From the NCBI GenBank assembly GCA_019894715.1, contig JAGXOA010000008.1:6710-70709 (forward strand): a stretch of DNA of 64,000 nucleotides, given 5' to 3'. The translations under genes and the position numbers were made by a program. This document shows positions 3,684-62,680 of the stretch, piece after piece (positions within the stretch are counted from its first letter, which is position 1; every line of letters begins with the position of its first letter). The stretch comes from Promethearchaeota archaeon. GTDB lineage: Archaea; Asgardarchaeota; Lokiarchaeia; Sigyniarchaeales; SOKP01. The notes below the pieces were generated by a model, which saw nothing but the letters and a program-made list of their open reading frames with translations, was not told the DNA's origin and searched no databases.

Positions 3684-3963
3684 ATATCATCAAAAAAAAT
3701 AATAAAAATATAAATATTTGTTATAAATTTTTATTAATAATTCTTAACACACCATCTCTTTAATAATCTCTCTTTTCTATATCTCTAATAAAACATCATA
3801 TTCAAGGTATATAAAAAAGAGATTATTAAAGAGATCAATAAAGATTAGCATTGGAATTTTGATATTATTATGAGATGATTTCCCTCATTTATGGAATAAT
3901 ATTCTCATTTCGAGAAAAATGATCATGAGCCTTCATCTATCATAGTTAGACTAAGACGACCTC

Positions 3964-4101
3964 ATGAATGGTAAAGTAGTCGGAGATGATTCCTTTGGGA
4001 ATTTATTCGATAGAGGTAACTGGTTTTGGCCTGTACGAATAAGGGATAAGATCCAAACTTCGTATGAACAAATTGTAGTAAAAAATGTTAATATTATTTA
4101 A
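3964..4101 (+). other. 45-codon micro-ORF inside Family-A copy 1 (coding status unproven)
   Basis: ATG 3964, TAA 4099-4101, reading [45 protein letters not shown]. The same frame is open with identical length in copy 2 (27016-27153). No Shine-Dalgarno-like sequence upstream. Confidence 0.3.
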
Positions 4102-4117
4102 CATTTTTACTATTTTT
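4078..4117 (+). terminator. hairpin plus T-tract at the 3' end of Family-A copy 1
   Basis: gtaaaaaatgttaa / tatta / ttaacatttttac forms a 13-bp stem with one bulged A, followed by tattttt. The identical structure occurs at 27130-27169. Confidence 0.55.
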
Positions 4118-4124
4118 GATAACC

Positions 4125-5321
4125 TTATTCTTGATTAATTTTATCATAATAAATAATATCATTAAAAATCTTTATTAATATCTTTATAATGTTTCTGGGA
4201 TTACCTTCTGACTTATTATAGATCTTCTTTAAAATACTTTTACTTAGAGGATAATATGGATTTTTGAAATCAGATAATATTTCGGAGGAATTGATTGATT
4301 TAAGAAATTTATCGATCGTAAGTTTATAGAATTTATAGATATCTTCTTCCTTAAAATTAGATAAAAATAATGGTTCTTTTAGATTATTTGATAGTTCTAT
4401 ATTCTCTTGTTTAAATAACTTTTTTATTTCATCTAAAGAATTTTTAGAATTCAAAGTAATAATTTTCTTTAAATTCTTGATATTTTGCAATTCAGAAATT
4501 TTACCTAAGATATTTTTTGCAACAATATTATCAGAAGACTCTTCTGCACCATAATACCAGCTAGAATCAAAAAAGGTTTCAATTTCTTCTTCTTCCTTCA
4601 TTAGAGTAATAATTTTATCAAAATCATCAATAAAAATAATAGTGCCTAGCTTAGAATTTTCTATCAATACTTTTAACATAGTAAAGGCATTTTTTTTATT
4701 TCTTAGATCATTCTCGACATCTAATAGGGCAAGTTCTCTTATATTCATAAGTTCTCCTAATAAATAATCTTCAGCATCTATTCTTTTATATGGATCTAGT
4801 TGATGTGAGGTTATAACATTTATAATATCATTTAAAGAATTTTTATCCCCAAAATCATCTTTCCATTTATTAAGCGCGTTACTTCTTGCTTTTTGGATAT
4901 CAGGTATCGGAAAGAATCCATACTTCTTTTCCAGACCACTCCAATTATTGCACAATTCTTGTGTAATCATTCTAAGGTTTTCTATTCCTAATTCTTCAAT
5001 AAATTCAGAATATAAGTTAAAATAGAATTTTCTGTAAATATTATCTAAGGATATATAGATAATATTAAACTTATCTTTAAGATTCATTTTAAGAGACCAA
5101 AATAAATGGGTTTTACCAACACCAATATCTCCAAGAATAGGTAAAATAAAACCCTCATTTTCAGTTACAAATTTTATTAAAGAATTTAAAAAATGTCTTC
5201 TTGAATCGACAAAATCTAATAATTCCTCTATTTCACCTGTAGCTACAAAATTATTAAATGGATTTATTTTTATTTTTAATAATTTTAAGAATTTGAGTTT
5301 TAGGTTTTCCCACAGAAGCAA
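4125..5321 (-). CDS. AAA+/ORC-Cdc6-like P-loop ATPase (archaeal-ATPase type)
   Basis: Walker A ILGDIGVGKTHLFW, Walker B IIFIDDFDKI, and a C-terminal lid-like SEGNPRNIIKILIKIF resembling the GxxR lid motif of Cdc6-like AAA+ proteins. Confidence 0.65.
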   Translation of the reverse strand: MLLWENLKLKFLKLLKIKINPFNNFVATGEIEELLDFVDSRRHFLNSLIKFVTENEGFILPILGDIGVGKTHLFWSLKMNLKDKFNIIYISLDNIYRKFYFNLYSEFIEELGIENLRMITQELCNNWSGLEKKYGFFPIPDIQKARSNALNKWKDDFGDKNSLNDIINVITSHQLDPYKRIDAEDYLLGELMNIRELALLDVENDLRNKKNAFTMLKVLIENSKLGTIIFIDDFDKIITLMKEEEEIETFFDSSWYYGAEESSDNIVAKNILGKISELQNIKNLKKIITLNSKNSLDEIKKLFKQENIELSNNLKEPLFLSNFKEEDIYKFYKLTIDKFLKSINSSEILSDFKNPYYPLSKSILKKIYNKSEGNPRNIIKILIKIFNDIIYYDKINQE

Positions 5322-8907: not shown

Positions 8908-10290
8908 CTACAATATATTTTCTTTTTTTTTTAGAAAATTATATGCAAATAAAGCATATACTTTTATTGAATTTATAAAATCATTCAATTCAATTGATTC
9001 ATTACTAGCATGAGCTAATGACGCGTTACCTGGCCCAAATAAGATCGTTTTTTCACAATAATTAGAATTCCTATAGTACACAGCATCTGAACAAGCAGGA
9101 AAAAGAAAATAATATGGTTTTTGTAAATATATCTTATTGACGATGTTATAAAATAGTTTTATTTCTTCAGAATCTCTCCAATTTTTCCAATAAGATGCTT
9201 CTTTGTCTAAAAGAATATCATAATCAAAAAAGATATCATTCTCACCTTCTATTTGATCTTTCATTTTATATCCACATTCATTAATTATTCTTCTTATAGC
9301 ACTAATAATATCTTCAGTTTTTTGTAAAGGTAATAATCTAAAATCCATAGTTATCTCACATATATTAGGTATCACGTTGTCTTTTATTCCACCTTTTATG
9401 ATGGTTACGCTTTTAGTAAGTGTTGTAAATACTTTTATAAAATTTTGTATTAGAGGTTGTTCATTATAAAATTTTATAAAAGCTTGTTCATCTGGAAATG
9501 TTACCGAAACTAATTGTTTTAATTCATCTAGTGTTATTGGCGGATTTACTTTTGGGATATAGTCATCTATTTTATCAATATTATTAATAAGATCATTTAT
9601 CATATATATTGCATTCTTTCCCATAGCAGGGAAGGAAGAATGGGATGAAATACCATTAGCAATAATTCTTATCTGTAAATGGCCTCTTTCTCCAAAAATT
9701 ATTGATTTTGGAAGAGGTTTAAAGCCAGTTGGCTCTCCAATTACAGTAAAATTACAATCTATGGAATTAGAGATATTTTTAATAATCCATTCTGTACCCT
9801 CATCTCCTATTGTTTCTTCATCTGCTACACTATGTAATATTAGATTTCCATCTAATTTTATATTTAAAGATTTCAAAACCTTTAGAGAAATAATCATTGC
9901 TGCTAAACCACCTTTCATATCAGTAGATCCTCTACCATAAATATATTTGTTCCTTTTTATTTCTCCAGAGAGAGGATGATATTTCCATTCTGAAACATTT
10001 CCAGATGGTACAACGTCCATATGCCCATTAAAAATAAGATTTTTGAATTTAAAATTATTGTTTAGATAGGCTACTAGATTGGCTCGATTGTTACCGAATT
10101 TAAATATTTCATTTTTAATACCATCCTTATCTAAATAATTTTTTATTATTTTTGCTAGATTTAATTCATTTCCAGGAGGATTATAAGAATCTGTTTGTAT
10201 TAAATTTACTAAAAAATCAATAAATTCTTCTCTTTTATCGTCTATATATTCTTTTATTAATTCTTCTGTCATTTCTCTAGGATTCAACAT
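8908..10290 (-). CDS. M20-family metallopeptidase (ArgE/DapE/acetylornithine deacetylase-like)
   Basis: Motifs FNGHMDVVP, GRGSTDMKGG, HSVADEETIG and ERGH. Confidence 0.8.
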   Translation of the reverse strand: MLNPREMTEELIKEYIDDKREEFIDFLVNLIQTDSYNPPGNELNLAKIIKNYLDKDGIKNEIFKFGNNRANLVAYLNNNFKFKNLIFNGHMDVVPSGNVSEWKYHPLSGEIKRNKYIYGRGSTDMKGGLAAMIISLKVLKSLNIKLDGNLILHSVADEETIGDEGTEWIIKNISNSIDCNFTVIGEPTGFKPLPKSIIFGERGHLQIRIIANGISSHSSFPAMGKNAIYMINDLINNIDKIDDYIPKVNPPITLDELKQLVSVTFPDEQAFIKFYNEQPLIQNFIKVFTTLTKSVTIIKGGIKDNVIPNICEITMDFRLLPLQKTEDIISAIRRIINECGYKMKDQIEGENDIFFDYDILLDKEASYWKNWRDSEEIKLFYNIVNKIYLQKPYYFLFPACSDAVYYRNSNYCEKTILFGPGNASLAHASNESIELNDFINSIKVYALFAYNFLKKKENIL

Positions 10291-10439
10291 TATATCAATC
10301 TTATTTTATTTATATCAATTGATTATTTTTAAAAATTCTCTTAGGAATGTATATTTTTAATAAATTTAAAAAATTTAGGAAATTTTAATATTATTAAATT
10401 ATTTAATTAATAAAAAATAAGCTACAAATGGTTATTTGA

Positions 10440-13400
10440 TTGCTTTATCACAAAAAACAACTAAGAAATAAAATAGTTACTTGTATCGTTATTTCTATTT
10501 TTCTGATATCCAGTTTCTCAATTTTTAATTTTTCAGGAACTAATATAGAGAATAATGTTGATAGCGAAATTGATGGGCCTAATAATATATTATCTAGTGC
10601 TGCTTTTGATATTCCATTTATAGGAAGTGGAGATGATCAAGAAGGAAGACTTTATTTTGAAGAAAATTCTTCTTCATTAGGCAATAATAATGGACAATTC
10701 AATATTCCAGCGCCTGCGACAAATACATTTCTTGATTATGGAGATATGTATTTTGAATATGATGAAGATTATACAACAGAACATATAATAGAAGATCATG
10801 ATGCCTTAGGATTACCATTAGAAGATCAAATCAATTTTGGATGTACTAAACAAGGATCTGAGATGATAATAAACACTGGTACTATAGTTGGTGATTTTAA
10901 AAATGATTTATTTGGATTTGATAATAATTCATACGTAACTATTACATCAGATGGTGCAGGTGAGATTGATTTTACAATAGATTCAGACTTTTTCGGCACA
11001 TCTTTTGAAACAATAAATTACGGGACAAAGGACTTTGTTAAGGAAGAAATACTGGGATTTATTATGATTTTATCATATAATCTAACTGCTAATGCGGATT
11101 TAACAATTTCTATGTATGATGATTCTAATTCAAAATGGGTAAATGTAGTTAATCAACTTAGTCTATTAGCAGGTGGTCCAGATGAAATAAATAGATTAGT
11201 AGAAAGAATAGTAAACACAAATCTTAAATTTATTAATGGATCGGATTACAGCAATATTAATTTTCTATTTGAAGGCACTGGTACATATGATATTAGTTTA
11301 CATGAATTCAGTGTAAATGCGACTTATGCTTTTCAAGCTGATTTAGATTACCAATATCCATTAGCTTTAGAACTTGATATTAGAGGAAATAATACTCTTT
11401 TAAATGGATTTTATGCATGGATTAGAACTGTAAATTACTCTGCAGCAGAAACAACAGAATTAAACATAACACTTTATAAGTCAAATAAAAAAGTCATAAA
11501 TAGAAATAATCTTAATGCAGATGATGATGCGATTCCTAATACGCTTATATCAGATTATTCAATCTCATATGTAAACTACACAGAAGATAAAATAGATTAT
11601 TTTAAATTTGAAACAACTTTGAGATTAGATTTATATAATTATTTTATAAGAATAGATGTAAATAACTCTGATGTATATAAATTAGTTACTCTGGATTCTG
11701 ATGATGAAAGTTATGGAGACGATGAAGAAGATCATATTCTTAAAAGATATACAGGTACTTATTGGGAAAGAGTAAGAATAAATATAAATCCTGGTGTGAC
11801 ACCTTATACTACTGGATTTTTAGATGCAAGTAGTTTTAAACTTAATATAACCAGAGGTTATATGCCATCTGATTTTATTTATGATGATGTTCAAACTCAA
11901 AAAATAGATGGAATATCAGTTGAAGGTACAAATGATCCATATTTTGATTATAGTGTTGCTGATGGATATCAATGGGGCCTTGGAAAATGGAACAATACAT
12001 TTAATAATGCTATAACTAATGGAGGAAGTTCAGATTTTACTGTGACACTAACATGGAACAATAGTGAAATCATTGATTTTTACTTTGATGTCTTTTATTA
12101 TGTCAGAGCTTATTCAAAACATAATGTTGGTGCCCTTTATTCAACCTATTATAACGAAATCTCTGAATGGGCTTTCACTTTTACTGCTTCATTTAGTGGT
12201 TATACATGGGATTTTGTAGATTTATGGTTTGTCTATAATAAAAATTTTGAAAGCACATCTCTCTATACCCCACTTAATGGTACTGTAAATGCTTTAGAAG
12301 ACACTAATGGAGAACAAATTTTAAATAGCACTCATGACAAATTGATTCTTCCATATGAAATGGTAGAAGAAATTGATGGCGTCTACGAACTTAATACAAC
12401 GAGTTATAATGCTATTGATAAAGTTTATAGTTATCTTGATTATAGTGGCAATTTATGGGAAAACCAAGGTTTTATGAATGGAGATGTTATGAAAATAGGA
12501 GCGGACATAAGAGGAGATGAAAGAATAGCACCTAATAATGGTGATATTAATGCTACATTGTATTTTCCTGATGGATCTATCTATATTTATGATTTAGATT
12601 TGACAGGAACATTATCAAGTAATGGAGAAATTCTTTCATATACCTTCAATAATGACGTTTTTCTAAATGTAGATCATCCAACAACTCATAGTGGAACATA
12701 TAATCTTGGTATGATATGGAATAATGGAACCTCAATTGGATGTAAAAGTATCCCTATTTATTTTGATGAATACAATATTACCTTTGGAGATTTAACATTT
12801 AATCAAGATTTAGATTATAATCTACTAAGTCTTGAAGAAATTTCAAAAATTACAGATTTGGATTCAAGAGATCCGCAAGAATATGATTTATATCTTGCTT
12901 CAATAAATCAGACATCTAGTTTTCCTGCAGATTTCTATGCAATAAATAATTCAGAAATTAATCAAGAATATATTTATGAGAGTTATATTGGCGACTTAAC
13001 AATTAATCTTCAATCATTTTTACAAAACGAGTCAATAATAAATCCTGATGAAAATATCAAATTCAAAATTACATTAGAAAATCGGGATCCTATTATAGAT
13101 ATAAATCTTAAGGTATCAGTCGAACTTGTCTCATTATTAAATAATCAATGGATTATTGCTAATGATACTTCTCCAACTCAAGTTTTAAAACAATCTGGAG
13201 ATCCAAATGGTGATAATATCAAAGATTTTATGATAGATTTTAATATACCTATAATACAAGCAGGGGGAATTTGGGATGGCGTTAATGCACCTATCCGAAT
13301 GGGTGGTGCTAAAGCTATTGTAAAGATTTTTCTAGATGATGAAATAATTGGAATATATGAATGTCCTGATTATGCTTTACTTGTTGAAGAAACTGAGGAC

Positions 13401-15061: not shown

Positions 15062-15211
15062 GTATCCTTTTTAGAAATTTAAAATAGTAATTTATTTAAC
15101 TTAATTATATATATCACCATAAAAAATATTAAATTTATTAAATCTTGCTAAAAAATAGGATTCAAATATTTACTGTATTTTTTATAAAACATTGATACAA
15201 TTAATTCCAAA

Positions 15212-15510
15212 TTGAACTACCACTCCCTAAAGGGGGATGGATTCCTTCTTGCTTGAAAATTATCCAAAAAGATTCTGAAGAATCTCTTTAGGTCTTACAT
15301 TATCTCCAAAAGCGTGGTTTCCCGTTGTCCCAACGATAGATGTATCATCATGTATGATTGTGTGATATATCTCTCTTTTTGCAATATTCTAATTCCTTCC
15401 TCAATTAGATTAAGGGAAGTATTTTCATCCTATCATTACAATGCTGTGTTTTTCTAATTTTTTTAAAATCATGCTTAATTCATAACTCCCATAAATGGAG
15501 GTGTTTTCTT
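15212..15510 (+). repeat. Family-B hairpin-ended repeat, copy B-15
   Basis: Starts TTGAACTACCACTCCCTAAAGGGGGATGGATTCC. Ends AACTCCCATAAATGGAGGTGTTTTCTT. The interior differs from other copies. Confidence 0.6.
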
Positions 15511-26571: not shown

Positions 26572-27015
26572 GATGGAACAAGTTATTGAGATTAAATTGA
26601 TTTATAAAATAATTATATTTTAAGATATAATAGTTATAACTATCATATAATAAAAATCTTAAATATTATTGTTTGTATTATTTCTATTATTATTATTCAT
26701 TATGAACTTTTCTCACAATCATATCATCAAAAAAAATAATAAAAATATTAATATTTGTTATAAATTTTTATTAAAATTCATTCATCGTAATAAATAGACC
26801 AATAATTAAATTATTAATAATTCTTAACACACCATCTCTTTATATAAGATCTTTTCTCTTTTCTATCTCTCTAATAAATCATATCATTAATAAAGACTAG
26901 CATTGGAATTTTAATATTATTGTAAGAGGATTTCCCTCATTTGTGGAATAATATTCTCATTTCGAGAAAAATTATCATGATCTTTTATCTGTCATAGTTA
27001 GACTGAGACGACCTA

Positions 27016-27153
27016 ATGAATGCTAAAGTAGTCGAAAACGATTCTTTTTGGAATTTATTCGATAGAGGTAACTGGTTTTGGTCTGTACAAATAAGGGACA
27101 AGATCCAAACTTCGTATGAACAAATTATAGTAAAAAATGTTAATATTATTTAA
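27016..27153 (+). other. 45-codon micro-ORF inside Family-A copy 2 (coding status unproven)
   Basis: [45 protein letters not shown]. Same length and frame as copy 1. Confidence 0.3.
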
Positions 27154-27169
27154 CATTTTTACTTTTTTT
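27130..27169 (+). terminator. hairpin plus T-tract at the 3' end of Family-A copy 2
   Basis: Same stem-loop as 4078-4110, followed by ttttttt. Confidence 0.55.
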
Positions 27170-27223
27170 GATAACCTAATCAAAGCTTAATCTTATTAAA
27201 AAAAGCAAAATTTATCAAAATAT

Positions 27224-37925: not shown

Positions 37926-40325
37926 ATGAGAAACAAAACAATTGAAATTAATATAATAGGAATCGTTCAAGGAGTAGGATTTCGTCCTCTTTTATTTAAT
38001 TTAGCTAGAGAGCTTAATTTAATGGGATTTATCCAAAATAATGGAAATCTTGGAGTTAAATTAGTATTACAAGGAAAACATCAGAGTTTAAATGAATTTT
38101 TTAAACTATTAAAAGAGAGAAAACCAGAAATCTCTTATATCGAAAAAATAATACAAAATGAATTGGATACTGATATCATTTATAATGATTTAAAGATAAA
38201 AGAAAGCCAGAAGAAAAGTGGATTGAGTTTAACTCTTCCTCCAGATATTTCTATATGTAGGAAATGTTTAGAGGAAATCCAAAATAATAAATTTGAAAGG
38301 TACTATAATTATCCATTTATAGCTTGTTCTAAATGTGGACCTCGATATTCCACAGTGATAGAACTTCCCTATGATAGAGAACGCACTACTATGAATTACT
38401 TCCCTTTTTGTAATTCATGTTATAGAGAGTATAAGGATCCTAACAATCGTCGATTTCATGCTCAAACTTTTGCTTGTAAGATATGTGGTCCAAATTATAA
38501 GCTCTATAATGATGAATTTGAAATTATACAAGAAAGTTCAATTGAGAAAATATTATATGAAACTGCTAAAAGGCTAAAATTAGGTCAAATAGGTGCTATA
38601 AAAGGGATTGGTGGAGTTCATCTTATAGCTCTTGCAAATAATGATGAAATAGTCACTAAATTACGGAAAAGAAAAGTAAAACGTAAGAATAAGCCATTTG
38701 CATTAATGATTCCAGACATAAATATAATTGATGAAGATTTTATAGTTTCTCAAAAGGAAAAGGAAATTATTGAATCATTTAGGCGACCAATAGTACTTTT
38801 AAAAAATAAGCAAAATATCTCTCATCATAATATTAGCGAAAAAGTTGCTCCAGGACTGAATAACATAGGATTCATGCTCCCTTATATGGGGATTCATTAT
38901 CTTCTTTTTAATTTCATAGGAAGAATACCAATTATATACACGAGTGGAAATCCAACAGATATTCCTATGGGTATAAACAACGAAGATATATTTGGTCAAC
39001 TTCATGGAATTGCGGACTTCTTTTTACTACATAATAGAGATATAAATCAGCGTATAGATGATAGTGTACTAAGAATTCATAATAATAAAGTAAAATTAAT
39101 AAGAAGATCAAGAGGGTATGTTCCAGAATATATTACTATGCCTTTTAAATCAAATATTACTGGAGCTCTTGCTACGGGTCCCGAATTAGGAGTATCAGGA
39201 GCTATTCTAAGATTAAATCGTATATTCCCCACTCAATATATTGGAAATATAAAAAATTTAGAAACATTCAATTTTTTAGAAGAATCTCTTTTTCATATGA
39301 AAAAATTACTTCAAATTAAGGATAAAGAACTAAAATTCATTGTTTCAGATGCCCATCCAAATTTTATAACTACAAATTATGCCCAAAAATTATCTGATCA
39401 ATTTTCTATTCCTTTATATAAAATTCAACATCATTATGCCCATATACTAAGTTTAATGATAGAAAATAGGATTAACTGTAATGAAAGAATTATAGGTATT
39501 AGTACTGATGGTATTGGTTATGGAGATGATGGAAATATATGGGGTGGAGAAATATTATCATGCACTTATAATGATTATATTAGATTAGGACACTTAGAAT
39601 ATCAACCTATGATTGGAGGAGATAGATGTACTAAATTTCCTGGAAGAATGGCAGCTTCTATTATTTTAAAAAATTATGAAATAACCGATGCAAAAAGGAT
39701 TTTTAAAAAGATTAATTTAGCGAAGGATTTAGAATATAAGGAAACAGAGTTAAATACTTTAATTTCCCAATTTGAGAAAGAAGATTTTTCATTTTCTAAA
39801 AAACATATTCCATTAACAAGTTCAACAGGTAGAATATTTGATACCGTGTCCTACTTATTAGGTGCTTGTTTTATTAAAACTTATAGAGGGGAACCAGCTA
39901 TGAGATTAGAAAGTCTTGCTTCTAAAGGTAATCCAAAAAATATAGATCTTTCTATCAGTTATGAAAATAAAAATAAATTAACAATAATAAACACGTCTCA
40001 ACTCATTGCTGATATAATTAGTCTTGTAGAAAATAATATTGGTCGAAAAAAGGACATAGCTGCTAAATTTCAAACCACTCTAGCTGATATTTTTGCAGAG
40101 ATTGCAATTAATAAAGCAGAGAAATTAAATATAAAAAAAGTAGGTTTATCAGGAGGAGTTGCATATAATTATAATTTTAATCAAGTCCTTAAGAAAAGGA
40201 TTAGTGATGCTGGATTAGAATACTTAGAACACAATATAATTCCTCCTGGAGATGGAGGTATTAGCATTGGTCAATTAGTAGGAGGTTTGGCAAAACATTT
40301 AGACAAAGGATCGAAAGATAATTAG
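37926..40325 (+). CDS. hypF: carbamoyltransferase HypF
   Basis: Acylphosphatase VQGVGFRP. Two Zn-finger pairs, CRKC..CSKCGPRYS and CNSC..CKICGPNY. YrdC-like KGIGGVHL. Kae1-like C-terminus ending GGISIGQ. Confidence 0.9.
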   Translation: MRNKTIEINIIGIVQGVGFRPLLFNLARELNLMGFIQNNGNLGVKLVLQGKHQSLNEFFKLLKERKPEISYIEKIIQNELDTDIIYNDLKIKESQKKSGLSLTLPPDISICRKCLEEIQNNKFERYYNYPFIACSKCGPRYSTVIELPYDRERTTMNYFPFCNSCYREYKDPNNRRFHAQTFACKICGPNYKLYNDEFEIIQESSIEKILYETAKRLKLGQIGAIKGIGGVHLIALANNDEIVTKLRKRKVKRKNKPFALMIPDINIIDEDFIVSQKEKEIIESFRRPIVLLKNKQNISHHNISEKVAPGLNNIGFMLPYMGIHYLLFNFIGRIPIIYTSGNPTDIPMGINNEDIFGQLHGIADFFLLHNRDINQRIDDSVLRIHNNKVKLIRRSRGYVPEYITMPFKSNITGALATGPELGVSGAILRLNRIFPTQYIGNIKNLETFNFLEESLFHMKKLLQIKDKELKFIVSDAHPNFITTNYAQKLSDQFSIPLYKIQHHYAHILSLMIENRINCNERIIGISTDGIGYGDDGNIWGGEILSCTYNDYIRLGHLEYQPMIGGDRCTKFPGRMAASIILKNYEITDAKRIFKKINLAKDLEYKETELNTLISQFEKEDFSFSKKHIPLTSSTGRIFDTVSYLLGACFIKTYRGEPAMRLESLASKGNPKNIDLSISYENKNKLTIINTSQLIADIISLVENNIGRKKDIAAKFQTTLADIFAEIAINKAEKLNIKKVGLSGGVAYNYNFNQVLKKRISDAGLEYLEHNIIPPGDGGISIGQLVGGLAKHLDKGSKDN

Positions 40326-40342
40326 TGCGTACAAGCCATTCT

Positions 40343-40666
40343 CTAATGGAAAAAAAAAGGATATTGGATTGCACAGCGCATAATCCGTTCCTTGAGCATA
40401 GTCTTGGCAGGGTGAGTGCTATATATCTCATTAAGCTTCAATTTGTTGTAAATATTCCGTTTCACGTGCGCTTTGGACTCTCTTGAAAAATCTAACAAGG
40501 ATAACTGACCAGTACTTAGTTTATCAAGAAACAGAGTAAGGTAGGTATTTTCCAGCTCTCGAAAGGCAATCATTCGCTCCTTGATACGTTGGTATATACC
40601 ATTCTTATCCAGATTGTTTGGAATCAACGATACGGTTCGAGTAATGATAGGTGGGGCAGACGTCAT
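40343..40666 (-). pseudogene. tnpB: truncated tnpB (only ~107 N-terminal codons; RuvC-like part and omega-RNA region absent)
   Basis: MTSAPPIITRTVSLIPNNLDKNGIYQRIKERMIAFRELENTYL... resembles TnpB/OrfB N-termini. The ORF ends right after an A9 run, 18 nt from the hypF stop codon. Confidence 0.55.
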
Positions 40667-40776
40667 CGGGAAAAGATAGAAGAATTTTTATATATATAAA
40701 ACAATGGACATGAATCTATTTAAACCATGGGAAGGTCAAGATTTTTTAAATTTCATAATGTTGAGATTTGTAAGAT

Positions 40777-41373
40777 TCAAGCGTCCTTCATTAATTTTTT
40801 TCCCGAGCACCTCATTCGATACAATTTCCCACTAAATGGATGGATGATGGCCACCAAGTCATCTACCATCTCACTTTCTGGACTTTTTTTATCCAATTCA
40901 TGCAAGTAATTGACAGAGACGTTAAATTCTGCTAAATAATTTTGCAAATATTCAAATCCAAACCTAGTGAGCCAGTCCTTATACGTCAGCAGGACATGCG
41001 AAAAACAATTTTTTCTCGCATCTCGCACCATTTTCCACAGATTTTTCCGGCGGATATTCAATCCTGAAGCTACGTCCTTGTAAACATGATTTACCTTTAG
41101 ACCGATTTTTTTTGCATGCTCTTTGAGTTGTTCCACTTGCCGTTCCAAGTCACCTCGCTTGGATTGTTTGTGTGAGGAAACTCTTTCATAAATGACGCAG
41201 GTGTTTTTAAAACTTGAATGAGGATGAGATATTTCTTGTTTATAGGAATTCTTAAGTATTAATCGCTTGATTTCGAGAACAGGAAATCGTCGATGACCTC
41301 CCAGAGTTCTTACGCAAGTAATTTTTCGCTTTTTTTCCCATCGACGTAGAGTCTTGATGCACACTCCAAGCAT
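40777..41373 (-). CDS. tnpA: IS607-type serine recombinase transposase (MerR-like HTH plus resolvase catalytic domain)
   Basis: HTH LGVCIKTLRRWEKKRKI and catalytic VIYERVSSHKQ..DLERQ. The homologous frame continues upstream (..YIIGITAL before the first Met) without a canonical start codon. Confidence 0.8.
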   Translation of the reverse strand: MLGVCIKTLRRWEKKRKITCVRTLGGHRRFPVLEIKRLILKNSYKQEISHPHSSFKNTCVIYERVSSHKQSKRGDLERQVEQLKEHAKKIGLKVNHVYKDVASGLNIRRKNLWKMVRDARKNCFSHVLLTYKDWLTRFGFEYLQNYLAEFNVSVNYLHELDKKSPESEMVDDLVAIIHPFSGKLYRMRCSGKKLMKDA

Positions 41374-41771
41374 GAGGGCTGTAATTCCAATGATATATAT
41401 AAAGAAAAAGATTTAATAAGAAGATTTAAAGTTTTGAATTATCTGCGTCGTATATCCATTTAAATAGTGTCCAGATTCGTCTATAATTTCGGAAACTATG
41501 ATTTACCCAGCTTCTTGGACTATATCATTTAAAAAAGCATTTGAAGTGCTTTATTATTTTTTTGAGAAAGGAGATAAAGCTCCATGGATCACATGGCAGG
41601 AAAATTGATTACTACCAAAATAATTTGAAGATTTCATCAATTTATGTTTCTTAAAGTAGTTTTATTGTATAATAAAATATCATGGGTTCAAAAGCTTTAT
41701 TTTAAAAATCAAAAAAATAAAATCTTTTGAAAAATTATAAATAATAAAAAATAATAAGAAGGTATTTATTT

Positions 41772-46139: not shown

Positions 46140-46255
46140 AATTTTTTACCTTATTAATATTGAATTATTATTAATTTATATCAAATATGTTCAATTATAA
46201 AGTTTGCTAAAAATTCTCTCTTAAAACTAAATCTAATAATTTATCATAATAACAA

Positions 46256-46845
46256 AAGAAAGCCCATTCCTTTAGGGAGGAGACAAATTTTGTTATAAAA
46301 ATTATTGCAAAAATCACTAATCGATATCATACCTTATTCTTAAATATAGGAAAATATTGATAATATCAGGGTTGATCATAGCTTACAAAAATCTTGACAA
46401 ATATCTGGACATTTTTTAAATTATTATTAGATTAGAAGGTTTTTTTATAATTTTATATATAGAAAAAAATCTATACTCATTTTATATATAAAATTTAGAA
46501 AATCAAGCTCGACTTTTTCTTTATATATGAATGTATATTATGAAGATAGCAAAAAAAAAAAATAGAATTGATAATATAAGAAAGAAATTATTATATTTTT
46601 CTCATTGGAATTAAAAATAAAGTGAAAGAGGATTTCCTTCAAATCGAGAAGAAATTATAAATTCTTTGGCTATGTCTATATGGTGTAGTCATGATCGTCC
46701 GTTGCCGATCCCTCAGGAGGTCATTTATTGATGTCCATAAATGTCCAGATTTTTTGCAACGGTAGAGAACAATTCTATAGTGTCTAAGATTCTCATTGAG
46801 GTTTAGGGACTGCAAATCCACTTCATTTAGGTATTGGTAGTTCAA
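46256..46845 (-). repeat. Family-B hairpin-ended repeat, long copy B-46 (~590 bp, with internal cargo)
   Basis: The reverse complement starts TTGAACTACCAATACCTAAATGAAGTGGATTTGCAGTCCCTAA and ends TCTCCTCCCTAAAGGAATGGGCTTTCTT. Both termini are colinear with the ~194-bp copy at 58521-58714, and about 380 bp of extra sequence lies between them. Confidence 0.7.
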
Positions 46846-46925
46846 ATTCTATTATTTCAATGAATTATATATAACTTTTTATTTAAATCAATATAAAATC
46901 CTAAAATAAAAAAAAAAATTAAAGA

Positions 46926-47375
46926 TTAATACATATCTTCTCTTGGAAGTGCAGCTGCAATAATTCCAAGGACAGCACCACCAACTATTAAGAAAAGACC
47001 TAACCCATAATCTCCAATATTTACTACAACTGGAAAAACATCTCCTATTTGGGTTTCTGACATCATAAAAATCATTGTGAGGGCAAGTTGATCCATTATT
47101 GCTATATCAGAAGCGATTCCTAATATAAAAATTATACCAACAATAAGAGGAGCAATTGCTCCAAATATGCTAGCAACTCTATATTTCATTCCTATTAATA
47201 AGAAGATTCCAGAAATTACAAAAAGCAAAGATATTATTAGCACATTATATCTCCAAAAGCCTTCTAATCCCACAAATAGAGCCATATCAGAAGTATATTG
47301 GAAATTATCACCTATATTTTGAAAAAATCCTACGCCTGAGACCGCTGTTCCTCCACCACCTAACAAAGCGAACAA
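46926..47375 (-). CDS. small polytopic membrane protein, paralogue 2 (5' end apparently degraded)
   Basis: C-terminus GLGLFLIVGGAVLGIIAAALPREDMY matches paralogue 1. Sequence homologous to paralogue 1's first helix (IISAILTILGTF) lies upstream of the TTG start, behind an in-frame TAA. Confidence 0.5.
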   Translation of the reverse strand: MFALLGGGGTAVSGVGFFQNIGDNFQYTSDMALFVGLEGFWRYNVLIISLLFVISGIFLLIGMKYRVASIFGAIAPLIVGIIFILGIASDIAIMDQLALTMIFMMSETQIGDVFPVVVNIGDYGLGLFLIVGGAVLGIIAAALPREDMY

Positions 47376-47541
47376 AAATGTTCCTAATATTGTTAAAATA
47401 GCAGAAATAATTTATTAATGTTAACCTATAATTATGTATAATTTTGCCCTAATTCAACGAAAGTAATCTTTATATATATGTTTGATTTAAATAATACATA
47501 TCACAATGACCCATGTGAAAATAAAAAAAAGATAGATCAAT

Positions 47542-48045: not shown

Positions 48046-48159
48046 TTTTTTCTTTTTTTTTTTTTTTATAGAATTATTTAATATATATTCTATTATTGTT
48101 AGTTCTCTAAAATAATAATATTAAATAACCAGAAATAATAATTGAACTTGTGTAAATTT

Positions 48160-48687
48160 ATGGAATTAGAGAAAAATATAAAAATACTGATACACGAAAG
48201 AAATATTCAAAAAACTATAAAAGAAATAGCTCAAATTATAAATAAAGATTATCGAACTAAAAATCCCATATTAATATGTGTTTTAAAAGGCGCATGTATT
48301 TTTTTTGTTGATTTAATTCGTTATTTAAATATAGAAATTGAAATTGAGTTTATTGAATTATCCAGTTATGGAGCAAATATTGAAAGTTCAGAAAAAGTTA
48401 AAATAATTAAATGGTTAACATCAGATATAGAGAACAGAGAAATAATCATCATAGAGGATATTGTTGATACAGGGATTACTATAGATTTTCTCATTAACAA
48501 ACTTAGTGAATGTAATCCTTTATCTATTAAATTATGTTCATTAACAAGTAAACCAACCAAACGAAAAAAAAAAATAAAAATAGATTATATAGGATTTGAA
48601 ATTCCAGATAAATTTATTATTGGTTATGGGTTTGATTTGAATGAAAAGTATAGAAATTTAAGAGATATTTATTATATTGATGATTGA
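48160..48687 (+). CDS. hpt: hypoxanthine/guanine phosphoribosyltransferase
   Basis: Preferred ATG at 48160 (MELEKN). Motifs ILICVLKGACIFFVDL, the PRPP loop IIIIEDIVDTGITI, and IGYGFD. Confidence 0.85.
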   Translation: MELEKNIKILIHERNIQKTIKEIAQIINKDYRTKNPILICVLKGACIFFVDLIRYLNIEIEIEFIELSSYGANIESSEKVKIIKWLTSDIENREIIIIEDIVDTGITIDFLINKLSECNPLSIKLCSLTSKPTKRKKKIKIDYIGFEIPDKFIIGYGFDLNEKYRNLRDIYYIDD

Positions 48688-48880
48688 ACTACCTCTACCT
48701 AAAGGAAGTGGATTCGAACTCCCTAATATAATATTAGACAATACTGGATGGTTCTCCAACCTATGTATTTATTGGAATTATAGAGATATAAATGATAGGA
48801 GGGTGTTAATTTATAGAAGAATTATGTAATTCATCCACTCCTTAAAATAAGTGGCTTTCTTGCATATAAATGGTAAAAAG
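48684..48880 (+). repeat. Family-B hairpin-ended repeat, reference copy B-48
   Basis: TTGAAC (48684-48689) overlaps the hpt stop codon. Hairpin 1 is CTACCTCTACCTAAAGGAAGTGG and hairpin 2 is CCACTCCTTAAAATAAGTGG, followed by CTTTCTTGCATATAAATGGTAAAAAG. Confidence 0.75.
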
Positions 48881-58334: not shown

Positions 58335-58520
58335 TTTGGTTTTTATTTAGATGTATTAAACTCAAATTTATATCAACTATGTATAATTATTCCTAATTTA
58401 TTTAATGAAAAATTAGACAATATAAAGAATATTTTCTGATAATATTTTAGTTTTTTTTTTAATAATAAAATATTACTAATAACCTATTGATAAAGTAGGC
58501 AAATTTTTCTCTAATAATAA

Positions 58521-58714
58521 AAGAAATTCCCTTCTTTTAGGGATGGGATGAATTTAAAAAAAAGAAATATTGTAAAAATCCTTAATTGATATCACAACCA
58601 ATTCTTAAATAGAGAAAAACATTAATTAGGGTAGAGAAATATCCTGTAGTGTCTAAGATTCTCATTAAGGTTTAGAAACTTAAAATACACTTCCTTTAGG
58701 TAGTGGTAGTTCAA
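58521..58714 (-). repeat. Family-B hairpin-ended repeat, copy B-58
   Basis: The reverse complement starts TTGAACTACCACTACCTAAAGGAAGTG..AACCTTAATGAGAATCTTAGACACTACAGG and ends CATCCCATCCCTAAAAGAAGGGAATTTCTT. It is colinear with both ends of B-46. Confidence 0.75.
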
Positions 58715-62628: not shown

Positions 62629-62680
62629 TTGAACTACCAACACCTAAAGGTAGTGGCCTTCTCGCATATAAATGGTAAAA
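62629..62680 (+). repeat. Family-B minimal copy B-62 (the two ends only)
   Basis: TTGAACTACCAACACCTAAAGGTAGTGG is joined directly to CCTTCTCGCATATAAATGGTAAAAAAA. This equals the first ~28 nt and last ~27 nt of B-48 with the ~140-nt interior missing. Confidence 0.7.

Follow-up and report, generated by a model that had tools for sequence, protein, structure and literature searches.

Our analysis showed that a repeat of about 600 nt, located at 46245-46845 of a 64,000-nt stretch of Promethearchaeota DNA (GenBank contig JAGXOA010000008.1; the whole stretch is referred to below as the window), very probably consists of two non-autonomous transposons, the remnant of an IS607-type element being nested within the remnant of an IS200/IS605-type element in the genome of a Lokiarchaeon. 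This repeat, here called B46, is a member of a repeat family of the window, Family B, and had been described in an earlier reading of the bare sequence (the sequence-only reading) as a long Family-B copy with about 380 bp of cargo, part of which resembles the core of a second repeat family, Family A. B46 represents no new kind of element and no functional module shared by two families, and reflects the ordinary accumulation of selfish DNA. The window is coding-dense with 26% G+C; its proteins, looked up by exact sequence, are found in NCBI on a 71.7-kb contig of a Candidatus Lokiarchaeota archaeon metagenome-assembled genome (MAG) with locus tags KGD63_, and our comparisons within the same genome cover about 111 kb of sequence. 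Loci used for comparison carry L numbers, and Table 1 gives the coordinates of the features discussed.

Both Family-B termini are present in B46 and colinear with those of the short reference copy B58, as had been noted previously: 46238-46361 aligns with 58502-58626 (75% identity) and 46761-46845 with 58630-58714 (86%). The DNA between the two blocks is indeed foreign, but it measures 391 nt (46372-46762) rather than about 380 nt. Homology among B46, B58 and the copy in L039 stops at the same base in all three (GGTAGAGAA), and deletion of 46372-46762 leaves ...ATCAGGGTAGAGAAC..., which aligns without gaps to B58 (...TTAGGGTAGAGAAA...) and to L039. Read across the insert, the sequence is ...ATCAGG/G-T...insert...CAAC-GG/TAGAGAA, with ...ATCAGG/GTTGATCATAG... 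and ...TTTTTTGCAAC/GG/TAGAGAAC as junctions and a GG at both, and excision restores the AGGGTAGAGAA of B58 and L039. The insert shows no target-site duplication, and it has an offset, imperfect inverted repeat (46394-46414/46739-46759) whose score was reached or exceeded in none of 2000 shuffles and in one of 649 real segment pairs. Experimental work has described four traits of the IS607 family, namely a (G)GG target, GG at both termini, the lack of a target duplication and an imperfect inverted repeat that is offset (PMC6188088), and their joint presence here argues that the insert is a non-autonomous IS607-family element nested in the B element. With IS607-type ends of its own and a GG at each junction, it is an independent element inserted into B rather than the cargo of B that it had been taken for.

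The homology of these ends points the same way. When the insert was compared with all sequence from the same genome, it gave a colinear match to 41510-41371(-) with a chain score of 51.9 (null maximum 44.7-45.2), and this stretch lies directly upstream of an IS607 tnpA gene at 40777-41373(-). The string TTTCTTTATATAT occurs exactly only twice in the window, once in the block at 46512-46527 and once in the block upstream of this tnpA. An nhmmer profile of IS607 left ends, made from L044, the window copy at 41.5 kb and L045 with B46 excluded, matches 46369-46423 (E=3.5e-4). The right end of L045 matches 46661-46766 with an nhmmer E of 1.7e-9 and a strict local score of 66.6 (null maximum 22.8), and that of L046 also matches the inner element (E=3e-4). 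The left-end homology extends to 46613 and the right-end homology begins at 46661, so that the 47 nt between them would mark an internal deletion junction. Since L045 reads TTTATGTATTCCATTGGAATTACAGCC at the start of the gene, which translates as M-Y-S-I-G-I-T-A (ATG TAT TCC ATT GGA ATT ACA...), the CATTGGAATT of the insert corresponds to tnpA codons 3-6. The inner element encodes neither tnpA nor tnpB and, because CATTGGAATT is the only part of tnpA that can be recognised, we file it as a deletion derivative and not as an insertion sequence (IS). The junction itself may hold a further relic of tnpA, from about codons 40-55 (GACGATTTCCTGTTCTCGAAATCAAG vs GAGGATTTCCTTCAAATCGAG); for B46, 11 of 1923 null tiles scored equally well or better (p of about 0.006), and the corresponding similarity is not significant for Family A, nor against L044.

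The tnpA upstream of which the match was found belongs to a truncated IS607-type element. Its product has a Pfam Resolvase domain (6.5e-17) and a MerR helix-turn-helix (HTH), and is named 'IS607 family transposase' in NCBI. The start of the gene has been lost 17 codons upstream (ATA for ATG), and the annotated 198-aa protein is without the first helix of the HTH. Of the large, tnpB-like orfB, the first 105 codons are left (40352-40666; 80% identical to L044 orfB), and the element ends at the 3' end of hypF (40325). More complete relatives are found elsewhere: L046, which matches the window element with an E of 3e-126, is full length and encodes a 215-aa TnpA and a 731-aa protein with a Cas12f1-like_TNB (TnpB) domain, L044 has the left end, tnpA and the large orfB, and L045, which stems from the same ENA sample, combines tnpA with a relic of the tnpB C-terminus and the right end. 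The 731-aa protein is encoded by orfB of the Asgard IS607-type elements (L046 1234-3429; L044 844-2622); only its C-terminal part matches Cas12f1-like_TNB, and the first 590 residues or so are without a Pfam match. Separately, a scan of viral contigs with the left arm of the inverted repeat (AAAATCATTGACAAATATCTGGACATTT) gave one match, of 27/28 nt, at the end of a coding region in an unrelated IMG/VR contig of 55% G+C (L041 704-731); this is probably a chance match obtained by selecting on 21 nt.

[quoted passage not shown] Six copies of its right-end motif, ACTNCNTTTAGGNNNNGRTAGTTCAA, lie in the window (8810, 15212-, 46820, 48684-, 58689 and 62629-, the minus sign denoting the strand), where none is expected, and a scan of species-representative genomes with this motif led to Promethearchaeota contigs in which it stands just after a 423-aa gene. 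The product of this gene (L004) has the Pfam domains HTH_OrfB_IS605, OrfB_IS605 and Cas12f1-like_TNB, which identifies it as TnpB, and in 13 of 25 public loci, from a metagenome scan and the species-representative matches, tnpB ends about 11 nt before the end of the motif. Alignment of eight full-length insertion sequences places the right boundary exactly after TTCAA, with flanks that diverge immediately outside it, and their left end, (TTTTAC)CACTAGAAGCAAAAGAAAGCCCACTCCTTTAGGTGTGGGATGAAT..., equals the Family-B left terminus. The left-end part of B46, which holds the region of the former tnpB promoter and, at about 46262-46281, a subterminal palindrome that is degenerate, matches the left ends of the tnpB-carrying elements L004, L007 and L025. 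Most of the copies read have TTTAC or TTTAT just before the left end, whose exact boundary no clean empty site fixes, and a TTTAT-type flank recurs to the left of B-type copies and full-length insertion sequences alike. Family B has subterminal imperfect palindromes at both ends (CCACTnCCTTTAGGnAGTGG at the right end and a similar one at the left), neither terminal inverted repeats nor a target-site duplication, and no coding capacity beyond short open reading frames (ORFs) that are inconsistent in frame. Full-length relatives with the same left and right ends occur in other Loki- and Hel-archaeal contigs, and relatives of the parental TnpB number in the thousands in Loki- and Hel-archaeota.

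Copies of Family B differ in how much of the parent they keep. The long copies in L039 and L037 retain part of tnpB, B15 is a 3' fragment, and nothing but the left end and roughly the final 85 nt is left in B58, B8 and B48; a tblastn search with about 120 TnpB homologues found no TnpB similarity in B46, B58, B8 or B48. Mini-elements of 45-50 nt with one hairpin (B62, and also in L035, L005 and L023) are made up of some 20 nt from the start of the B left end, one palindrome and TAGTTCAA as terminus. The left-end and right-end palindromes are very similar, and a deletion from one to the other would yield just such a product. In L024, which comes from another organism (36% G+C), a 190-nt element has the left end, the interior and the right end. 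Across the 111 kb examined, B-type elements occur about once per 10 kb.

We propose that the outer element was originally a PATE-like element of about 210 nt, in which a tnpB-only insertion sequence of the IS200/IS605 family is reduced to its left end and the final 85 nt of its right end. Elements of this type are believed to transpose in single-stranded form (peel-and-paste) with the help of a Y1 TnpA acting in trans, a step that we infer here. A B58-like copy would have received, at the (G)GG of ...ATCAGGG/TAGAGAAC..., an internally deleted IS607-family element that kept its left end, the tnpA promoter region, the first tnpA codons and the right end whose usual place is behind the tnpB-like gene. 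Such an integration would fit the mechanism of serine recombinases, in which crossover takes place over a GG that the element ends have in common with the target, and the target is not duplicated. The A-like module would be the internal deletion junction of this inner element, starting with tnpA codons 3-6, and uninterrupted B copies would be expected to carry AGGGTAGAGAAC.

Several observations weigh against this reading. No second copy of the inner element was seen in the 111 kb of the genome, and its standing as a repeated mobile family would rest on the homology of its ends and not on copy number. Neither the AT-rich stretch 46424-46602 nor 46614-46660 has a significant counterpart in the available IS607 copies. 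The absence of B46 and B48 at the syntenic sites in the related MAG contigs L042 and L043 (70-79% nucleotide identity) is a presence/absence polymorphism in favour of a mobile outer family, but these relatives are fairly distant and the empty sites adjoin an inversion, and the comparison is thus one of presence with absence and not a clean excision or insertion of B46. A Y1 tnpA for the outer family did not turn up in the sequence examined, in which no dedicated search for one was made, and the transposition of both elements, outer and inner, is deduced from what their sequences look like.

The similarity to Family A, which had been read as a module common to two repeat families, proved to be a more delicate matter. 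Family A is intergenic, 440-500 nt long, and present in at least seven copies in the MAG as judged by ORF proxies, with 84-92% identity between copies; the left 180 nt are variable and rich in indels, and a 290-nt core, about 90-95% conserved, ends in a hairpin and a T-run. The ends of the family are imperfectly inverted and no target duplication is obvious. An A-like string is indeed present in the insert, 46603-46641 being identical to 26901-26939 at 30 of 39 positions, and the matched 39 nt are followed by a 20-nt gap and then by AATCGAGAAGAAATTAT opposite TTTCGAGAAAAATTAT, as reported earlier. Family A and the insert have in common CATTGGAATT, the length of a 15-nt spacer, AGAGGATTTCC.TCA and TCGAGAARAAATTAT. 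The module matches Family A with a composition-aware local score of 31.9 bits, above those of 316 real tiles of the window (maximum 27.0) and 1000 dinucleotide shuffles (maximum 26.9), and together with its extension it reaches 50.8 under chain-friendly scoring, against a null maximum of 44.7 (968 tiles). However, an unrelated coding region reaches 29.75 when the insert is compared with the 111 kb from the same genome, and formal alignment, the test on which the sequence-only reading had itself staked the similarity, gave an nhmmer E of only 1.3 for 46603-46641 alone with a profile of four A copies. The similarity between A and B46 thus beats the local nulls and fails the profile search, and these mixed scores make it borderline and not robust.

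Common descent of Family A and the insert from one IS607 deletion derivative is the explanation that we tentatively prefer, without considering it established. It would account for the 30/39 identity, which takes in the G+C-containing CATTGGAATT as well as AGAGGATTTCC.TCA, for a spacing of 15 nt between these two in A and B46 alike, for the colinear second block that follows (TCGAGAARAAATTAT) and for termini of A that look IS607-like by eye (ATCATATCATCAAAAA vs ATCATAGTTTCCAAAAA, TTTTTGATAACC vs TTTTTTGYAACGG), none of which is expected if the resemblance is coincidental, any more than are the chain score or the strict score above all tiles and shuffles. A coincidence, or a 10-nt tnpA relic embellished by AT-rich noise, with Family A unrelated to both IS607 and B46, is nonetheless a real possibility. 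Besides the weak profile match and the closeness of 29.75 to 31.9, it would explain why the A copies are matched neither by the left-end and right-end profiles of IS607 nor by L046, and why Family A has no significant similarity to the 5' region of tnpA. The right-end chain scores of Family A are marginal, 3-73 of 701 null tiles being equal or better, and its sole link to IS607 (in the copies at 3684-4125 and 26721-27177) is the module that is also in the B46 insert. The stretch 46614-46660 has no significant counterpart outside Family A, and a metagenome scan with the pattern of the A module gave 0 matches. Two other origins of the module were discarded: as a relic of the 3' end of an IS200/IS605 tnpB, an idea that came from CTCATTGG in the L039 relic, it showed no significant DNA similarity, and CATTGGAATT is not enriched as a general promoter motif would be (17 occurrences with at most one mismatch, 14.9 expected).

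As for what Family A might encode, its ORFs of 45-59 aa are annotated as hypothetical (KGD63_00350, _00435, _06895, _08670 and _15170), and a protein gene was rejected because most of the differences between copies in the 45-aa ORF are non-synonymous. One-sided changes in the family keep G-U pairs on the plus strand and hint weakly that its core may act as RNA; covariation was absent among the four copies, which are too similar for any pair to have changed on both sides.

It is quite unlikely that B46 is instead a Family-B element with captured passenger DNA, in which the A-like module was exchanged between families and the whole 600 nt or so move as a unit. Such a capture would agree with the two B termini colinear with B58 and with an A-like string that outscores all local nulls, and PATE-type elements could in principle carry anything between their ends (PMC10055086). 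Nothing in it, however, predicts a passenger that is bounded exactly by ends of IS607 type, that has a GG at each junction and an offset inverted repeat in the manner of IS607, and whose removal restores B precisely. The module is also found in no other B copy, so that whatever sharing there is involves Family A and the nested IS607-type element rather than Families A and B; in L039 and L037, the long B copies contain relics of tnpB in its place. Finally, it is highly improbable that the extra 390 nt are the decayed tnpB and guide-RNA (omega-RNA) region of B46's own IS200/IS605 parent: they lie exactly where tnpB would be, and the long copies in L039 and L037 are just such intermediates with recognisable tnpB relics, but the search with TnpB homologues found nothing in 46372-46762, DNA similarity to the L039 tnpB relic of the same subfamily or to the 3' part of L004 is not significant, an nhmmer profile of the 3' ends of the insertion sequences matches B15 only, and the ends of the insert match IS607 instead. 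An origin of the insert from ancestral intergenic DNA was likewise rejected, as it shows no similarity to the intergenic regions of L042.

The reading of B46 as two nested remnants also changes the picture of strands and ORFs. With orientation set by the parent transposons, from left end to right end and in the sense of tnpB, B46, the inner element, the module and the A copies of the window all lie on the plus strand, and the module is not antisense to the B element as had been thought. The ORF at 46639-46845(-) does lie wholly within the repeat, and is merely repeat sequence: its exact sequence is absent from the protein collection, no gene is called there in the ENA contig L001, and other B copies read in other frames. 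It is spurious, and nothing points to a host function for B46. Searches of Rfam gave nothing relevant, either for the whole window at gathering thresholds or for both repeat loci with E up to 10. ARAGORN found no tRNA in the window or at the two repeat loci, even though GGATTCGAAC is tRNA-like by look.

Table 1. Features of B46 and of related repeats (window positions unless a locus is named).
Feature	Position	Strand	Remarks
B46, outer Family-B element with its insert	46245-46845	+	Colinear with B58
TTTAT flank, directly 5' of the outer element	46240..46244	+	Resembles the transposon-adjacent motif (TAM)/target motif TTTAY; putative role
Outer element, left-end part	46245..46371	+	75% identity to B58; ends in the GGG target
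Left GG junction dinucleotide	46370..46371	.	Putative serine-recombinase crossover core; lies in a G-run, position ambiguous by 1 nt
Nested element, probably non-autonomous IS607 family	46372..46762	+	391 nt including the right GG; homologous ends; removal restores B58 colinearity
Inner element, left end (T[T/A][G/A]ATCATAG...ATCTGGACA...TTTAAAT)	46372..46423	+	Matched by the IS607 left-end profile
Left arm of the imperfect inverted repeat	46394..46414	+	22 nt inside the left end; 18/21 complementary to 46739-46759
TATA-box-like block CTTTTTCTTTATATAT	46512..46527	+	Identical block at 41395-41410(-); putative promoter
Family-A-like module	46603..46660	+	46603-46612 (CATTGGAATT) = IS607 tnpA codons 3-6
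Inner element, right end (...CGTCCGTTGCCG...AAATGTCCAGATTTTTTGCAAC+GG)	46661..46762	+	Region after the tnpB stop in IS607-type copies
Right arm of the imperfect inverted repeat	46739..46759	+	1-3 nt inside the right end; pairs with 46394-46414
Outer element, right-end part	46763..46845	+	Starts TAGAGAAC, palindrome CCACTTCATTTAGGTATTGG, ends TAGTTCAA at 46845; 86% identity to B58
ORF, 68 codons, TTG start	46639..46845	-	Spurious; antisense across both right ends
B58, short reference Family-B copy	58509..58714	+	Left end and last 85 nt of the right end
B15, 3' fragment	15212-15435	-	tnpB C-terminal relic; matches the last 210 nt of full-length insertion sequences, E=1e-22
B62, one-hairpin mini-element	62629-62673	-	45 nt
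Long B copy	L039 8750-9175		Keeps the last ~100 tnpB codons
Long B copy	L037 225-629		Keeps the first ~65 tnpB codons
Truncated IS607-type element	40306-41508	-	Left end, serine-recombinase tnpA, start of orfB
Family A copies read as DNA	3684-4125, 26721-27177; L037 9559-10056, L039 9680-10160	+ (window copies)

Some of the B-type elements lie in contact with genes. The right end of B48 adjoins the end of hpt (48142-48687) at 48684-48690, where the terminal TTGAA of the element provides the TGA stop; in the relative L042, hpt ends ...LID-TAA and no element is found there. A 149-aa membrane-protein gene beside B46 (46901-47405) is inverted with respect to L042 (5954-6469) and L043, with B46 at one edge of the inverted segment and no repeat seen at the other (47376-47541). 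Remnants of A and B tend to cluster in the same intergenic regions: in L039, a B-type fragment at 10290-10447 (+), composed of a tnpB 3' relic and the right end and belonging to the L004 subfamily, lies 130 nt downstream of the Family-A copy at 9680-10160, and in the window some 50 nt separate B15 from a stretch (15111-15164) that looks like the left end of A. In contigs from other samples (L002, L009, L010 and L013), short-read assemblies of the same population end in A and B copies or no more than about 100 nt away from them, so that these repeats fragment Lokiarchaeota MAGs.

These findings have consequences for annotation. ORFs such as the 68-codon one, which A and B copies contain elsewhere too (for instance KGD63_00545, KGD63_00350 and KGD63_00435), are derived from repeats and should not be counted as genes, and the B-type elements break metagenome contigs (L002, L009 and L013), in one case supply the stop of hpt and in another adjoin a gene inversion. 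For research on TnpB and Fanzor nucleases, the window brings together two TnpB-associated families in one Lokiarchaeon, one of IS200/IS605 type and one of IS607 type, both with gene-less derivatives. It offers useful material for such work rather than a new principle. PATE-like elements, the mechanics of IS607 and the TnpBs of Asgard archaea are already in the literature, and our literature searches did not find nesting to be unusual.

A more speculative possibility, which we consider unlikely, is that the nesting has created a guide RNA across families. In autonomous relatives, the IS607-type right end would be the 3' part of the TnpB guide RNA, and in B46 this end abuts B sequence (TAGAGAACAATTCTATAG...). 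Should the 731-aa TnpB-like nuclease of IS607 type load a transcript of this end in trans, its guide would consist of DNA of the B element, and one transposon family would be directed against uninterrupted copies of another, to cleave them or to home into them. In a related scenario, also unlikely, Family A, with its at least seven copies and a conserved 290-nt core that ends in a hairpin and T-run, could descend from the same IS607 deletion derivative as a gene resembling a guide RNA, either domesticated or stand-alone.

Among known systems, the outer element is closest to the PATEs, which are gene-less derivatives of IS200/IS605 elements (PMC10055086). Like them, it has the ends of a tnpB-carrying IS200/IS605-family element, subterminal palindromes and no coding capacity, it keeps the stretch next to the right end that in full elements is part of the TnpB guide RNA, and its copies come in many sizes, here from 45 nt to 600 nt. 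It differs from PATEs in its host, an Asgard archaeon, and in left-end and right-end palindromes so alike that 45-nt mini-elements with one hairpin exist (B62, L035). The full-length parents of Family B (L004 and others) resemble the tnpB-only elements of IS1341 type, for which 3' sense-overlapping RNAs and TnpB guide RNAs have been described (PMC4615843, PMC8612924): they have a left end, tnpB and a right end without tnpA, the tnpB reading frame runs into the right-end palindrome, and at the 3' end of L004 a stretch of 220 nt has a better fold than its shuffled versions (z=-3.4). B46 and B58, unlike these, keep only the last 85 nt, which makes a complete guide-RNA scaffold doubtful, and 46600-46865 of B46 folds at z=-1.5. 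The inner element, finally, compares with the IS607 family (IS607, IS1535, ISC1926), in which a serine-recombinase TnpA with an N-terminal MerR-like HTH is accompanied by TnpB (PMC6188088, PMC4058570). It shares with this family ends homologous to those of elements that encode a TnpA with MerR-HTH and Resolvase domains and a TnpB-domain protein, as well as the (G)GG target, the GG at both junctions, the lack of a target duplication and the offset imperfect inverted repeat, and differs from it in encoding neither protein, with some four tnpA codons recognisable, and in having autonomous relatives whose TnpB-like protein, at 731 aa, is unusually long for TnpB.

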